Source: a virus
Direction: 5' to 3' (one strand)
UHGV virus genome: UHGV-0286028
DNA: 24,559 bases
Below are positions 136 to 14,936 of this stretch, in pieces. Below the pieces are notes generated by a model. It ran no database searches. It saw only the letters and a program-made list of their open reading frames with translations, and was not told where the DNA came from. Both the position numbers and the translations under genes were made by a program. Each line of letters starts with the position of its first letter. Positions within the stretch are counted from its first letter, which is position 1.

Positions 136-150
136 TTACCTTAAAGGTAT
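136..150. promoter_or_regulatory. Operator-like palindrome TTACC-TTAAA-GGTAT upstream of int (one mismatch to TTACC-N5-GGTAA)
   Basis: Matches the 15-bp inverted repeat found at the other operon starts in this window; lies about 45 bp upstream of the int start. Confidence 0.45.
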
Positions 151-5045: not shown

Positions 5046-5198
5046 TCAGCCCTCCCATATCTCGTTATCGTTGGCTACATCGCGAGCTTCTTTGCTGACG
5101 AAAGCCCACTTAATGCCTTCCTGTAAGGTGCGGAACTTCCAGCTCATGAATCCGCATGCAGTAACGCAGTACCAACCGTTGATGATTTTCCACTGCAT
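5046..5198 (-). CDS. Small hypothetical protein (50 aa), first gene of the leftward early operon
   Basis: Below the ORF-track cutoff; I translated it as MQWKIINGWYCVTACGFMSWKFRTLQEGIKWAFVSKEARDVANDNEIWEG; GAGG about 9 nt upstream of the ATG; TGA stop 2 nt before the next ATG. Confidence 0.35.
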   Translation of the reverse strand: MQWKIINGWYCVTACGFMSWKFRTLQEGIKWAFVSKEARDVANDNEIWEG

Positions 5199-5217
5199 AA
5201 CTTGTTACCTCGGTCTG

Positions 5218-5232
5218 TTACCGTTGAGGTAA
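5218..5232. promoter_or_regulatory. Operator palindrome TTACC-GTTGA-GGTAA (leftward-promoter region, site 1)
   Basis: Perfect 5+5 inverted repeat with 5-bp spacer; between the repressor terminator and the leftward operon. Confidence 0.6.
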
Positions 5233-5279
5233 TAATTATGCGTATCTGGTTTGATCTCAATAGGTATGAGTTAAAAAAA

Positions 5280-5294
5280 TTACCCGTTAGGTAA
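5280..5294. promoter_or_regulatory. Operator palindrome TTACC-CGTTA-GGTAA (leftward-promoter region, site 2)
   Basis: Perfect inverted repeat, 62 bp centre-to-centre from site 1. Confidence 0.6.
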
Positions 5295-5305
5295 TCGAAT
5301 AGGCA

Positions 5306-5351: not shown

Positions 5352-5936
5352 TTATTGTTTGTTTTTTTCGTTCTGGTTGATGACAAATTCAATGTAACTT
5401 TCGATCTTTGCCTTCTCTGTTTCAGGTAACAATGCGTAGCGCGAGCGGTCATAGTTGATAGTTGCAGGGTCATGCGGATGAATCAGTAGTTCATATCCGT
5501 GACGCCCGAATGCAGATGCAACATTCTCCAGGGTGGAAATGGAAACGCTGACCTCATTGTTTAACAGGCGGCTTATTGTCACCTGGGCGACGCCGGATGC
5601 GCGGTGAAGTTTTCCCTGAGTTGAAAGGTCGCGGCTTTCACTCATCCAGCGTTCCAGGTTGTGAGCTGCCAGCTGACCAATGTCGCTTGGGCCGACAGGC
5701 TGAAAACCTTCCTGAGAAAGCGAGCGATCGATATCAAGCCAGTTACGGGGTTTATTGGCGGCAGCTTCAATTTTTCGCGCAACCTGGTCGCCGATAACCT
5801 TCTTGCCAAGAGCCCAGCGGTTTACCAGATTTGCCTGAGTTCCAAGTTTTTCTGCCATCCGCGTCTGAACACCATTGAATTCACGGTCGATCAAGTCGTT
5901 GAGATTTTGCCTGCGGACGTCCTGGATACTTTTCAT
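5352..5936 (-). CDS. CI-like immunity repressor with two HTH (Cro/C1-type) domains and no peptidase domain
   Basis: 194 aa; N-terminal HTH pattern (TRMAEKLGTQANLVNRWALGKK) and a second HTH-like segment (GVAQVTISRLLNNEVSVSISTLENVASAFG); divergent from a Cro-like gene across a 154-bp region with three palindromic sites; no S24 Ala-Gly/Ser-Lys motifs seen. Confidence 0.6.
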   Translation of the reverse strand: MKSIQDVRRQNLNDLIDREFNGVQTRMAEKLGTQANLVNRWALGKKVIGDQVARKIEAAANKPRNWLDIDRSLSQEGFQPVGPSDIGQLAAHNLERWMSESRDLSTQGKLHRASGVAQVTISRLLNNEVSVSISTLENVASAFGRHGYELLIHPHDPATINYDRSRYALLPETEKAKIESYIEFVINQNEKNKQ

Positions 5937-5991: not shown

Positions 5992-6054
5992 TTACCCAAC
6001 AGGTAAATGCACCTCATAGGTAACTATCCTTGATTTTTGTTACCTTATGGGTGA
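5992..6054. promoter_or_regulatory. Tripartite operator cluster between repressor and cro-like genes (5992-6006, 6009-6023, 6040-6054)
   Basis: TTACC-CAACA-GGTAA (perfect), GCACC-TCATA-GGTAA (degenerate left half), TTACC-TTATG-GGTGA (one mismatch); spacing 17 and 31 bp, reminiscent of an OR1-3 arrangement. Confidence 0.65.
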
Positions 6055-6090
6055 ATATTTATTATCTGAAATAAATATCAGGCAATAGCT

Positions 6091-6376: not shown

Positions 6377-6391
6377 GTACCTCAAAGGTAA
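6377..6391. promoter_or_regulatory. Operator-like palindrome GTACC-TCAAA-GGTAA just downstream of the post-cro terminator
   Basis: One mismatch to TTACC-N5-GGTAA; 12 bp after the terminator T-run. Confidence 0.45.
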
Positions 6392-6682: not shown

Positions 6683-7487
6683 GGTTGAAGTTATCACTCC
6701 TGATAAACCTGAAATTTTTCAGATAGCAGAAATTCTGGGTATTGATCCAGATGCTGTTCTTGGAAAGCTGGTTCGTATATGGGCATGGGCTGACCAGCAA
6801 ACAATAGACGGTAACGCTGGCAGCGTTACAAAAGGAGTACTTGATAGACTCGCTTTTATTACAGGATTTGCTGACGCCCTCATTAGCGTCGGATGGCTTG
6901 CTTATCATGACGGCAAACTAATTCTTCCAAACTTTGAGCGACATAATGGAGAATCATCGAAAAAACGTGCACTTACGAATAGAAGAGTGGCAGAGCATCG
7001 AAAACGAGTAACGCAAAAAGTAACGCCAACAGCGTTACAAAAGGAGTTACCAGAGGAAGAGGAAGATATATATAAAACCCCACACATAGCGCACGTGCGC
7101 GAGGGTGCTCCGACCAGTGAAGCGAACGGTATGCCGTTGCAGGTGGCTGAACCTGAATTTCTGGATGGCCTGAGTGAACCCATCGGGAAATTTCCGATGA
7201 CCGATGGCTGGCATCCGTCGCCGGATTTTCGACGGCGTGCTGCGCTGTGGGGAACGGTCCTGCCGGAACCGGAATTTACACCTGCTGAACTTGCTGCATT
7301 CCGGGATTACTGGATGGCTGAGGGCAAAGTGTTCACGCAGGTTCAGTGGGAACAAAAATTCGCCAGGCACGTAAATCATATCAGGGGAAAATCAAAAAAC
7401 GCCGGGAAAAGCGATGAGCTTGACTGGAATAACACTGACTGGATAGAAGGGGTGTGGGATGAAATCAACTCCAGAACTTCTCAATGA
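6663..7487 (+). CDS. Replication initiation protein (lambda O-like role; replisome-organiser N-domain, DnaT-like C-terminal region)
   Basis: ATG 6663 with GAGGGG SD; directly precedes the lambda-P-like helicase loader; C-terminal W-rich segment (FRDYWMAEGKVFTQVQWEQKFARHV). Confidence 0.55.
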   Translation: MASSWIKVEVITPDKPEIFQIAEILGIDPDAVLGKLVRIWAWADQQTIDGNAGSVTKGVLDRLAFITGFADALISVGWLAYHDGKLILPNFERHNGESSKKRALTNRRVAEHRKRVTQKVTPTALQKELPEEEEDIYKTPHIAHVREGAPTSEANGMPLQVAEPEFLDGLSEPIGKFPMTDGWHPSPDFRRRAALWGTVLPEPEFTPAELAAFRDYWMAEGKVFTQVQWEQKFARHVNHIRGKSKNAGKSDELDWNNTDWIEGVWDEINSRTSQ

Positions 7488-8235
7488 GTACGATCGCTTA
7501 CGTGAGCATGGTGTTGCTGTGCATGAAGAGCGGCGTGACAGCAATGGCAAAAAGGAGCAGGTTGCTAGAATTTTCAATGAACTATTTGTCCAGTTACAGG
7601 CTGCATTTCCTGCAAGCGTTTCGACCATAAGGGAGCAGAACAAACTTAATGAATTCCGTAAGCAATGGATGCTTGCGTTTCTGGAGAATGGGATCACAAC
7701 AATGGAACAGGTTAACGCTGGTATGCGCCACGCCCGCGCCAGTGAATCTCCGTTCTGGCCGTCGCCAGGGCAATTCATCAAGTGGTGCAAAGACAGCAAG
7801 ATGGTTCTTGGCGTCACCATTGACGATGTGATGGCGGAGTTTCACCGGTACAGCAAGGAAAAAAGTTTATATCCTGGTGGTCCCGAAAGATTCCCGTGGC
7901 GACATCCGGTTATGTACTGGGTCGTATGTGATACCCGCCGTGCAATGTATCAGCGCCAGCTTAGCGAGATTGAGGTTGAGAAACACGCGCGCAGGCTGCT
8001 CGATGATTGGGCGAAAAAGGTGGCTTCCGGACAGCAGATACCCGATCCGGTGATCAGCATACAGGCAAAGCCAGAGCCCATGAGTACACCTCCGGACACA
8101 GGGAGAGACGTTTACCATCCACCAGGGCGAAGTTTCGGGTGCATGCCTAACGCCGCCACCCTAGGGGGAATAACACCGGCGCAGTGGCTGATGGAGGAAT
8201 ACAGGCGGGGAAAGGCGGCAGGATTTATCAAGTAA
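7459..8235 (+). CDS. Replication protein P-like DnaB helicase loader
   Basis: 258 aa; strong by-eye similarity to lambda P (ours QLQAAFPAS ... RKQWMLAFLENGITTMEQVNAGMRHAR ... PSPGQF vs lambda ATFPAS ... RRQWVLAFRENGITTMEQVNAGMRVAR ... PSPGQF); overlaps the O-like stop by 29 nt. Confidence 0.85.
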   Translation: MKSTPELLNEYDRLREHGVAVHEERRDSNGKKEQVARIFNELFVQLQAAFPASVSTIREQNKLNEFRKQWMLAFLENGITTMEQVNAGMRHARASESPFWPSPGQFIKWCKDSKMVLGVTIDDVMAEFHRYSKEKSLYPGGPERFPWRHPVMYWVVCDTRRAMYQRQLSEIEVEKHARRLLDDWAKKVASGQQIPDPVISIQAKPEPMSTPPDTGRDVYHPPGRSFGCMPNAATLGGITPAQWLMEEYRRGKAAGFIK

Positions 8236-8240
8236 TACCA

Positions 8241-8260
8241 GCGCGATAGCGCATTTTTTT
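8241..8260 (+). terminator. Weak terminator-like hairpin plus T7 run after the P-like gene
   Basis: GCGC-GATA-GCGC followed by ATTTTTTT. Confidence 0.4.
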
Positions 8261-8272
8261 ACGTTTCAATGA

Positions 8273-8287
8273 TTACCTGACGGGTAA
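8273..8287. promoter_or_regulatory. Operator palindrome TTACC-TGACG-GGTAA
   Basis: Perfect inverted repeat in the P / DUF1064 intergenic region. Confidence 0.6.
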
Positions 8288-8335
8288 TAAAATATTCTAA
8301 AATCTATTGATTTCGTGTCTTATGTGGTTTTTAAT

Positions 8336-8350
8336 TACCTTGGAGGTAAA
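8336..8350. promoter_or_regulatory. Operator palindrome TTACC-TTGGA-GGTAA overlapping the Shine-Dalgarno of the next gene
   Basis: Perfect inverted repeat; the GGAGG inside it is the RBS for the ATG at 8353. Confidence 0.6.
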
Positions 8351-8352
8351 TC

Positions 8353-8697
8353 ATGAAAAAACAGATACAGGCTCTTGGTCGACTCAAAACAGGCCAGATG
8401 AACAAAACAGAATCTGCGTATTGCCAGCACCTTGAGCAGCGTAAACGTGCAGGGGAAATCGCCTGGTATCGATTCGAGGGTATCAAGCTGCGGTTAGCTG
8501 ACAACACGTTCTATACGCCCGATTTTGCTGTGATGCTCGCCACCGGCGAGATGGAACTGCACGAAGTGAAAGGTTTCTGGACCGACGACGCCAGGGTGAA
8601 AACCAAAGTCGCCGCAGATCAGTATCCGTTCCGAATCATCGGGGTAACGGTTAAACCAAAGAAAGCAGGTGGTGGCTGGAACATCGAAGAGTTCTGA
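8353..8697 (+). CDS. DUF1064-like protein, predicted PD-(D/E)XK nuclease fold
   Basis: 114 aa; YTPDFAV ... ELHEVKG fits a D ... E-x-K nuclease motif; position equivalent to the nin-region recombination/resolvase genes of lambdoid phages. Confidence 0.55.
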   Translation: MKKQIQALGRLKTGQMNKTESAYCQHLEQRKRAGEIAWYRFEGIKLRLADNTFYTPDFAVMLATGEMELHEVKGFWTDDARVKTKVAADQYPFRIIGVTVKPKKAGGGWNIEEF

Positions 8698-10815: not shown

Positions 10816-11089
10816 CCTGCAACTTGCCGTTAGATGTGAATACTTCGACGCCATGATTCGCGGAGAGAAAACGGAAGAGTATCGCCTGTGTAATGACTAC
10901 TGGAATAAACGCCTCGTTAATCGTAAGTATGACCGCCTGATTATCACAAAGGGATATCCGAAGCGCGACGATTCCAGCCGCAGAATTGATGTTCCGTATG
11001 ACGGATATGAAATCAAGACAATCACACATCCACACTTCGGTGATAAACCGGTAAAGGTGTTCGCGATAAAGGTGAATATTGATGGCTAA
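10808..11089 (+). CDS. ASCH-domain protein (PUA-like fold)
   Basis: GTG at 10808 with AGGAGG SD 6 nt upstream; IRGEKTEEYR matches the ASCH G-x-K-x-x-E-x-R signature; 93 aa. Confidence 0.6.
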   Translation: MANLQLAVRCEYFDAMIRGEKTEEYRLCNDYWNKRLVNRKYDRLIITKGYPKRDDSSRRIDVPYDGYEIKTITHPHFGDKPVKVFAIKVNIDG

Positions 11090-11420
11090 ATCAGCAGCAG
11101 AGCGCAAAGCCGCTCAGAGAGCCAGACAAGCTGAATCCGGTGTGCGTAAGCTGGAAATTGTGCTTGATGCTCAGGAAATTGAAATGCTGGAGCGTAACTG
11201 TGCCACGCGTCGCCCCGGGCGTGCGCCTTACGAATTTGGTGAGTATATAGCGTTACTGATCCGCCAGGATGATGCACGCGTGCGCGGGCGTATAAAATCG
11301 ATCAGCAGAAAACGTTGCGGTAAGTGCGGCGAGAGCGTTCCTGTGAATTCATGCCCGTGTAATGGTGACTCGCAATGCTGGGTGACCAAAGGCTGGCATG
11401 AAACGAAATTAATAGTGTGA
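11082..11420 (+). CDS. Hypothetical protein with C-terminal Cys cluster (zinc-ribbon-like)
   Basis: ATG 11082; N-terminal basic segment; C-terminus CGKCGESVPVNSCPCNGDSQC. Confidence 0.5.
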   Translation: MAKSAAERKAAQRARQAESGVRKLEIVLDAQEIEMLERNCATRRPGRAPYEFGEYIALLIRQDDARVRGRIKSISRKRCGKCGESVPVNSCPCNGDSQCWVTKGWHETKLIV

Positions 11421-11655: not shown

Positions 11656-11681
11656 GCCGCCAACTATGGCGGCTTTATTTT
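11656..11681 (+). terminator. Rho-independent terminator between the early/accessory block and the terminase genes
   Basis: Perfect stem GCCGCCA (11656-11662) / TGGCGGC (11667-11673), loop ACTA, then TTTATTTT. Confidence 0.75.
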
Positions 11682-11692
11682 GCATGGTACTA

Positions 11693-11725
11693 TTACCACA
11701 ACGGTAACTATTACCACGGTGGTTA
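11693..11725. promoter_or_regulatory. Twin operator palindromes directly upstream of, and overlapping, the terminase small-subunit start
   Basis: TTACC-ACAAC-GGTAA (11693-11707, perfect) and TTACC-ACGGT-GGTTA (11711-11725, one mismatch); the second ends at the first base of the ATG at 11725. Confidence 0.55.
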
Positions 11726-12321
11726 TGATGCCTGCTGAACCTAAAACCTATAAACGCAAATCAACGCAATTTAAGCCACTAACAGCAATGCAGGAGGCTT
11801 ATTGCCAGTCATACATCAAAACGCCTGAAAACCAGACTCAGGCAGCGATTAACGCAGGATTCTCCCCAAATACAGCGGCAGTTAAAGCCAGTGTCATGAT
11901 GCGCGATGAACGCATTCAAAAACGGATTGCCGAGTTGATGGAGGAGCGCAACAAACGAATGCGCGTCAGTGCTGATTACGTTCTCATGCGCCTGGTGGAG
12001 ATCGACCAGATGGACGTGATCGACATCCTCAACGACGATGGGAGCCTTAAACCAATCCGTGAGTGGCCGAAAATCTGGCGCACTACGCTTAGTGGCTTTG
12101 ATCTGTCATCGACCATCATGAACATGAACGAGGATTCGATAGAGACAATCCTCAAAAAAATTAAATGGCCTGACAAGGTGAAGAACCTCGAACTGATTGG
12201 TAAGCACGTCGACGTCAACGCATTCAAAGAACGCCTGGATGTTAATGTGAATGTGACAATTGCTGATCGCATAGCGGCAGCCAGGAAGAGACTGAAAGAA
12301 CGTCAGGATGGCAATCAGTGA
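11725..12321 (+). CDS. Terminase small subunit
   Basis: ATG at 11725 (MMPAEPKTYKRK...); LTAMQEAYCQSYIKTPENQTQAAINAGFSPNTAAVKASVMMRDERIQKRI matches the small-terminase HTH region; stop overlaps the large-subunit start. The ORF-track start 11647 is a TTG inside the terminator. Confidence 0.7.
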   Translation: MMPAEPKTYKRKSTQFKPLTAMQEAYCQSYIKTPENQTQAAINAGFSPNTAAVKASVMMRDERIQKRIAELMEERNKRMRVSADYVLMRLVEIDQMDVIDILNDDGSLKPIREWPKIWRTTLSGFDLSSTIMNMNEDSIETILKKIKWPDKVKNLELIGKHVDVNAFKERLDVNVNVTIADRIAAARKRLKERQDGNQ

Positions 12322-14522: not shown

Positions 14523-14599
14523 TGGCGTGGCATGCAGGATTCGAACCTGCGACCAACCGCTTAGAAGACGGTTGCTCTGTCCAACTGAGCTAATGCCAC
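14523..14599 (-). tRNA. tRNA-Arg (anticodon UCU), phage-borne, argU-like
   Basis: 77 nt; I folded the reverse complement by hand: acceptor GTGGCAT/ATGCCAC, D-arm GCTC-AGTTGGACA-GAGC, anticodon stem ACCGT/GCGGT with loop CTTCTAA (U33, UCU, A37), T-arm GCAGG-TTCGAAT-CCTGC, discriminator G, encoded CCA. Confidence 0.9.
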
Positions 14600-14921: not shown

Positions 14922-14936
14922 TTACCTGAAAGGTAA
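14922..14936. promoter_or_regulatory. Operator palindrome TTACC-TGAAA-GGTAA upstream of the structural operon
   Basis: Perfect inverted repeat between the tRNA-leader region and the first structural gene. Confidence 0.6.

Follow-up and report, generated by a model that had tools for sequence, protein, structure and literature searches.

The palindrome TTACC-TTGGA-GGTAA, which lies just upstream of a DUF1064 gene, is probably a promoter-proximal operator of the prophage repressor Rep that acts at the level of DNA; from the sequence comparisons described below we would put the probability of this reading at about 0.8. The palindrome belongs to a stretch of 24,559 nucleotides of the viral genome UHGV-0286028, which we call the window and to which all positions refer unless another genome is named. 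From the integrase onward the window runs collinear with Escherichia phage TL-2011b; phiV10, ZX5 and other temperate podophages of the genus Uetakevirus (epsilon15-like) are close relatives. Neither the motif nor its assignment to a repressor is new, as both have been known for years from the GenBank record of epsilon15. The copy discussed here and its orthologues are unannotated elements of a known kind, and the records of phiV10, TL-2011b and ZX5 carry no operator features.

The palindrome and the putative promoter module around it

Read directly, the left arm TTACC occupies 8335-8339, the spacer TTGGA 8340-8344 and the right arm GGTAA 8345-8349, in the context tggtttttaa TTACC TTGGA GGTAA atc ATG. 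An earlier note on this DNA had described the same palindrome, placing it one base too far to the right (8336-8350), and had seen in it the Shine-Dalgarno sequence GGAGG of the ATG at 8353. The latter observation stands: GGAGG is composed of the last three bases of the spacer and the first two of the right arm. The identity given there for the gene holds as well, since the open reading frame of 114 amino acids matches DUF1064 in Pfam (PF06356, E 3.4e-7); it also matches phrog_190, 'Holliday junction resolvase' (E 5.9e-43). When compared with a 17-bp consensus built from 37 perfect sites in four genomes, the dyad at 8335-8349 is a perfect match; its left flank is A, and its right flank is A and not T. 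The features that are relevant to the argument are collected in Table 1.

Table 1. Operators and neighbouring features of the window
Feature	Positions	Strand	Remarks
One-mismatch copy TTACCttaaaGGTAT	136..150		Upstream of int; function uncertain
Proximal operator of leftward early (PL-type) promoter	5218..5232		Minus-strand promoter 5260..5232 from scan
Distal operator of PL-type promoter	5280..5294		62 bp from 5218
Rep, prophage repressor, presumed operator binder	5355..5936	-	PDB 5D50 match; Pfam HTH_3
Three operators between rep and cro-like gene	5992..6054		5992 perfect, 6009 two mismatches, 6040 one mismatch
Cro-like gene, 76 aa	6091-6318		Divergent from rep; phrog_35 'transcriptional repressor', E 5.6e-13
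One-mismatch operator	6377..6391		After the terminator of the cro gene
Short terminator-like hairpin, GCGC-GATA-GCGC + T7	8240..8261	+	Ends the replication operon; invariant in 12 phages
Promoter-distal operator, TTACC-TGACG-GGTAA	8273..8287		17 bp with flanks, 8272-8288; its centre lies 62 bp upstream of that of 8335-8349
Putative sigma70-type promoter	8307..8335	+	-35 TTGATT 8307-8312, 17-bp spacer, -10 TTTAAT 8330-8335
Promoter-proximal operator (predicted), TTACC-TTGGA-GGTAA	8335..8349		With flanks aTTACC-N5-GGTAAa, 8334-8350
Shine-Dalgarno sequence GGAGG	8342..8346	+	Inside the operator, 6 nt before the ATG at 8353
DUF1064 gene, 114 aa	8353..8697	+	First gene of the operon behind the putative promoter; ATG 8353-8355
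Operator pair before terS	11693..11725		One perfect (11693-11707), one with a mismatch (11711-11725); 18 bp between centres
Operator before gp3-like/portal operon	14922..14936		Orthologous to epsilon15 2931-2947, annotated 'repressor'

The intergenic region 8236-8352 was aligned in 12 phages from E. coli, Salmonella, Enterobacter and Klebsiella. Its conserved blocks follow one another in the order GCGC hairpin and T7, distal operator, AAAAT, TATTGA (which contains the -35 element), T-TGG-T-T-AA, proximal operator and AAA(0-2)TCATG. The stretch of phiV10 that is orthologous to the hairpin is annotated as a putative rho-independent terminator. The arms of both operators and the TTGA of the -35 element are invariant in all 12 phages, and the spacers of the operators differ. 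There is no insertion or deletion between the operators at 8273 and 8335, hence their centres are 62 bp apart in every one of these phages.

When the PL-type region 5190-5305 is reverse-complemented, no gaps are needed to align it with this region, and the two modules share one layout: distal operator, 19 nt, TTGAnn, 17 nt, -10 element and proximal operator. It is because of this alignment that we read 8307-8335 as a promoter, TTGATT-17-TTTAAT, the last T of whose -10 element (8335) is also the first T of the proximal operator. A promoter scan of the window did not list it, since the second position of the -10 element is T and not the usual A. If the reading is correct, transcription would start inside the spacer of the palindrome, at about 8342. 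Another candidate, an upstream promoter TTTCAA-18-TAAAAT with the 8273 operator in its spacer, was rejected, since epsilon15 and Tyrion do not conserve its -35 part. As a separate observation, the 17-bp stretch between the putative -35 and -10 elements (TCGTGTCTTATGTGGTT, entered under 8313-8334) is almost invariant in 75 close relatives of the window and is partly conserved across genera (T-TGG), which is more than promoter spacers usually need.

Both pairs of operators, 5218/5280 and 8273/8335, are exactly 62 bp apart from centre to centre, and pairs with this spacing are also found in epsilon15, SPC32H and Tyrion. As far as the aligned sequences go, the dimensions of the two-operator architecture do not differ by a single base pair among Uetakeviruses from four genera of hosts. 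Since 62 bp corresponds to about six helical turns, the operators at 8273 and 8335 would lie on the same face of the DNA. The fixed spacing suggests that a tetrameric repressor may bind the two sites cooperatively from that face, or may loop the DNA between them. Against looping it can be said that a loop of 62 bp is short; looping by the phage Rep is suggested here only by the invariant spacing.

The following course of events can be proposed. In the lysogen, the N-terminal helix-turn-helix domains of Rep would recognise the two TTACC half-sites, and Rep would occupy both 8335 and 8273. Since the proximal operator shares its first base with the end of the -10 element and extends over the expected start, Rep bound there would keep RNA polymerase off and so bar it from the -10 element and the start. 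Cooperativity would come from the distal site, either a tetrameric Rep or two cooperating dimers holding both operators with the promoter between them. Inactivation of Rep by an antirepressor, encoded outside the window, would then free the promoter. As only 3 nt separate the operator from the start of the gene, the Shine-Dalgarno sequence comes to lie within the operator; the spacer, free of constraint by the repressor, is used for GGA, AGA or AGG, with GGT of the right arm completing the ribosome-binding site. We read the regulation as transcriptional, and the overlap with the ribosome-binding site as a compact dual use of the same bases and not as a mechanism of coupling. An overlap of this kind recurs at terS, where an imperfect copy with GGTGG abuts the ATG in the window, in epsilon15 and in Tyrion.

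Conservation on a finer scale was followed in the 75 close relatives, taken from IMG/VR, by an ungapped comparison based on anchors; entropy values for the P gene were left out, as they are inflated by mosaic or indel rows. Of 300 arms, 299 are intact. Those of the proximal operator are intact in 74 of the 75 relatives, and all ten of its arm positions are invariant in the 12 orthologues. The spacers occur in 10 haplotypes at the proximal operator and in 28 at the distal one. The last three spacer bases are purines at 29 of the 30 haplotype positions of the proximal operator, compared with 44 of 84 in the distal operator. In Klebsiella phages the proximal spacer is AATAA, and the ribosome-binding site is reduced to AAGGT. 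Two constraints would thus act together on the site, that of the repressor on the arms and that of the ribosome on the spacer and GGT.

The distal spacer (8278-8282) deserves a separate remark. It is the most polymorphic 5-nt stretch in 7900-8697, its 28 haplotypes comparing with a coding maximum of 7, and its nucleotide diversity of 0.44 per site exceeds that of third codon positions in the genes on either side (0.17 and 0.04). The distal PL operator has a similarly variable spacer (5285-5289), with at least 12 haplotypes; the OR operators 5992 and 6040 do not. Among pairs of phages with identical flanking coding sequence the distal spacer differs in just 1 of 17, which means that it is not a rapid switch. 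One may speculate, and we do so with some doubt, that a single Rep tetramer holds each pair as a 62-bp promoter micro-loop, and that the distal spacer owes its polymorphism to a diversifying adjustment of operator strength, or to a mutational hot spot where the DNA is bound by repressor, and not to mere neutrality.

On the other side of the proximal operator, GGTAAA(0-2)TCATG is invariant in the 12 phages and a mosaic joint falls exactly at the start codon (8350-8355). The gene behind the joint is either the DUF1064 gene, with its match to phrog_190, or a gene for a RuvC-type resolvase. In other words, analogous enzymes would seem to have been swapped into one regulated slot.

The probable operator set and its presumed repressor

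There are seven perfect copies of TTACC-N5-GGTAA in the window, where 0.023 would be expected from base composition. With at most one mismatch allowed, there are 11 (the seven perfect copies and four with one mismatch), while 100 shuffles of the window contained 0.46 on average and never more than 4. Another one, with two mismatches, is found at 6009, so that the window holds at least 12. All 11 copies are wholly non-coding in a window that is 88% coding and 11.6% non-coding. They cluster round the repressor gene and precede each operon, and the sites of the immunity region have a consensus identical to that of the sites at other operons. As a class, palindromes of the type 5-N5-5 are unremarkable, with 40 in the window versus about 24 expected; seven of these 40 share the TTACC arms.

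The earlier note had named two of these copies. Besides the one at 8335 it pointed to 11711-11725 as a second copy that ends on the start codon of terS, and it missed the perfect copies at 11693-11707 and at 8273-8287, the latter in the very intergenic region that contains 8335-8349. Having seen only two of at least 12, it missed the genome-wide set of operators, the 62-bp pair and the imperfect status of the terS copy. That copy (TTACCACGGTGGTTA) does touch the start of terS, its last base being the A of an ATG at 11725 that is in frame with the gene; it has one mismatch in the right arm, and it carries the terS ribosome-binding site, GGTGG. The start of terS annotated in TL-2011b corresponds to the ATG at 11728.

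Two sites, 5218 and 5280, fall in the gap that separates the repressor gene from the leftward early operon, and in the promoter scan 5218 falls at the end of the -10 element of a leftward promoter. The same scan puts 6040 between the -35 and -10 elements of a rightward promoter, 6037-6065; the counterpart of the 5992/6009/6040 trio in epsilon15 is 33341/33358/33388. The 337-bp offset of the 6377 site is matched in Tyrion. The sites 8273 and 8335 separate a lambda-P-like replication gene (7459-8235) from the DUF1064 gene. As for the copy upstream of int, TTACCttaaaGGTAT, epsilon15, SPC32H and Tyrion all have the same mismatch, and the stretch of epsilon15 that matches it overlaps annotated integrase and RNase III sites.

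We note a few further peculiarities of the late region. A strong terminator (11656-11673) precedes terS and is followed by the two operators, 18 bp apart; a convincing sigma70 promoter was not found in 11656-11730. This stretch folds at -17.1 kcal/mol (z -2.25) because two palindromes nest in it. Just upstream of terS there is a gene with a match to phrog_536, 'transcriptional regulator' (11079-11417), which may encode a late regulator. Between the terminase and portal operons there is a gene for tRNA-Arg (anticodon tct; 14523-14599, minus strand), and SPC32H has a tRNA-Arg in the same slot.

The record of epsilon15 (AY150271.2) contains seven protein_bind features described as 'repressor; lysogeny', with the 17-bp form ATTACC-N5-GGTAAT. 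They are placed before terS, gp3 and the tailspike gene, three are in the PL region, and one is after the replication gene. Orthologues of 8273, 11693, 14922 and 5218/5280 are among them: 35906-35922, annotated 'repressor', is orthologous to 8273, and 12-27, also annotated 'repressor', is at the slot of the terS operators of the window, where a pair is present in epsilon15 and Tyrion as well. Our scan of epsilon15 found a perfect copy, TTACCTGAGAGGTAAatcATG, at 35969-35983, 62 bp beyond 35906-35922. This is the orthologue of 8335-8349; AY150271.2 has no feature for it, although it has one for its partner, the counterpart of 8273. The same set of sites is present in SPC32H and Enterobacter phage Tyrion, with spacings of 62, 62, 17-18, 30 or 48, and 337 bp.

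The assignment of these operators to Rep goes back to the epsilon15 annotation and to secondary citations, and for 8335 we infer it from them. The paper of Kropinski et al. 2007 (Virology 369:234) is on epsilon15 and is reportedly tied to its repressor-binding sites. A literature search on repressor binding sites of Uetakevirus, whose reach did not extend to the primary papers on epsilon15 and SPC32H, found nothing. The proposal of the earlier note that the palindrome is an operator containing a ribosome-binding site agrees well with the annotation of the motif in epsilon15, the cognate repressor gene in the window, the conserved arms and the variable spacers.

Rep of the window is homologous over its whole length (residues 1-190) to Rep of SPC32H, PDB 5D50, with E 4e-42, and it is 100% identical to the repressor of phiV10 and ZX5. 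The N-terminal domain is its best conserved part across the genus, and NLVNRW is invariant. In the secondary literature SPC32H Rep is described as a tetramer that binds to palindromic sites and is released by the antirepressor (PMC9638917), and a p53-like tetramerisation domain that uses Phe187 and Phe190 is ascribed to it (PMC9986798). At the tetramer interface Phe190 is conserved (F184 in the window), and Phe187 is replaced by Tyr (Y181). When the ZX5 repressor, identical to Rep of the window, was overexpressed, transcripts of lysis genes fell by more than 99.9% (PMC9782041). The mechanism of repression in this family has not been extensively characterised (PMC9986798).

A search of IMG/VR for divergent relatives of Rep, in which co-variation of repressor and operator might be seen, returned only repressors that are 99-100% identical. 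A tblastn search of phage records gave two distant repressors, homologous to Rep in the N-terminal domain only. Just upstream of the cI gene of Pseudomonas phage PseuP_224 there are ATTACC-cgta-GGTAAT and TTACC-tgtt-GGTAA (positions 2421-2474 of that phage), which have the same half-site as the window and a spacer that is one base shorter (N4). In Moraxella phage Mcat9 several TTACC-N5 variants lie beside its own repressor gene. With TTACC palindromes beside both distant repressor genes, the half-site travels with the Rep-type DNA-binding domain.

DNA or RNA, Rep or another binder

The earlier note had suggested that the element could act at the DNA or at the RNA level; the evidence favours DNA. 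If RNA were the target, the arms would pair in mRNA, sequester the Shine-Dalgarno sequence and limit translation of DUF1064, perhaps in read-through transcripts only. Pairing of the 5-bp arms is possible, as the note stated, and the minimum-free-energy fold of a 107-nt context has a 6-bp version of the hairpin. In addition, the upstream terminator is short, which makes it plausible that read-through transcripts from the replication operon would contain both arms. However, the isolated hairpin is weak (-3.5 kcal/mol, z -1.66), its stability being reached by 14 of 200 shuffles. The best fold of a 51-nt context lacks it, and in none of the three contexts folded is the z-score significant (context values of +0.47 and -0.79 were obtained). 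A search of Rfam gave no family at the palindrome, a tRNA being the sole match. The ten arm positions do not vary in the 12 phages and hence offer no compensatory change by which pairing could be judged. Moreover, the arms have the same specific sequence at every paralogous copy, including those upstream of -35 elements and those facing leftward genes; such identity, whichever the direction of the gene, fits recognition by a protein and not pairing of RNA. If the promoter proposed above is right, transcription would start inside the spacer, and the mRNA made from it would lack the left arm. An RNA switch as the main mechanism was rejected, there being no significant stability of the hairpin alone or in the three contexts, and we consider control at the RNA level very unlikely.

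If the palindrome is bound as DNA, Rep is not the only protein that could bind it. In lambdoid phages, Cro and CI share operators. The cro-like gene of the window is divergent from rep, as Cro is in those phages, its product matches a 'transcriptional repressor' family, and the protein may use the same sites later in infection. Were it the main binder, it would turn the operon down in lytic growth and would not silence the lysogen. This seems unlikely: binding of the cro-like protein does not exclude Rep and is likelier an addition than an alternative, and the motif also precedes late operons (terS, portal), where lysogenic silencing is a more natural role. The half-site, moreover, accompanies Rep-type N-terminal domains in distant phages, and it is to the repressor that the authors of the epsilon15 record attributed the sites. 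One could also imagine a late or middle activator, such as the regulator encoded at 11079-11417, or a host protein, in which case the copies outside the immunity region would be sites of activation. The lack of good sigma70 promoters near the sites of terS and the portal operon, and the regulator gene immediately upstream of terS, would fit such an arrangement. We regard it as highly improbable, since the sites of the immunity region and those at other operons share an identical consensus, the proximal copy overlaps the -10 and start region, a position suitable for repression and not for activation, and there is no evidence linking any other protein to the motif.

Finally, palindromes of this general form are common in the window, as the 40 generic ones demonstrate, and one could argue that the palindrome arose by chance and has no function, GGAGG being simply a ribosome-binding site. 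Seven of the 40 having TTACC arms, where 0.023 are expected, and the invariance of the arms in orthologues from four host genera leave virtually no room for this reading, which is already refuted by enrichment and conservation. A block to elongation similar to that of stoperators was rejected too, the sites being symmetric and none of them in coding sequence.

Comparison with known systems

These observations are of use in annotation. They give a regulatory map with at least 12 operators, three of them at OR, and with two PL-type modules that have 62-bp pairs, and according to this map each operon is probably silenced directly by the prophage repressor. From the fixed 62-bp geometry one can derive a testable prediction of how a tetrameric Rep of the SPC32H type engages DNA. 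The value as a discovery is small, the palindrome being an orthologous copy in an E. coli relative.

In epsilon15, as in the window, the paired site is 62 bp downstream and ends 3 nt before an ATG. The repressors of the two phages are 42% identical, and the gene behind the promoter encodes a RuvC-type resolvase in epsilon15, whereas it is the DUF1064 gene here. In SPC32H the motif occupies corresponding places, among them 35972/36034 ahead of the gene in the DUF1064 slot. Its Rep/Ant lysis-lysogeny switch is said to be the subject of Kim & Ryu 2013 and Kim et al. 2016 (PDB 5D50, 5D4Z). The antirepressor gene of the present phage lies outside the window.

The arrangement is similar to OR and OL of lambda and 434 in that dyad sites overlap the early promoters flanking the repressor gene, with several copies side by side; there are three operators at OR in the window. 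The central bases of 434 operators are not conserved, and the same is true of the spacers here. Unlike in lambda and 434, operators of the window also precede replication-distal, packaging and structural operons, and operator pairs bracket a promoter at 62 bp. Another difference, according to the SPC32H literature, is that Rep has a tetramerisation domain and is inactivated by an antirepressor instead of undergoing RecA-stimulated cleavage.

The stoperators of mycobacteriophage L5, which are bound by gp71, are asymmetric 13-mers located within transcribed regions in one orientation, and they block elongation. The window is comparable to L5 in having many repressor sites over the whole prophage, by which every transcription unit would be silenced directly, but its sites are symmetric and are found at promoters and in intergenic regions. 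A further parallel is Rco of plasmid pLS20, a TetDloop repressor that loops DNA between operators 75 bp apart (PMC9986798). Rco is a helix-turn-helix repressor with a p53-like tetramerisation domain that is proposed to be common to SPC32H Rep (PMC9986798). The operators of Rco are arrays of direct repeats, whereas those of the window are dyads.
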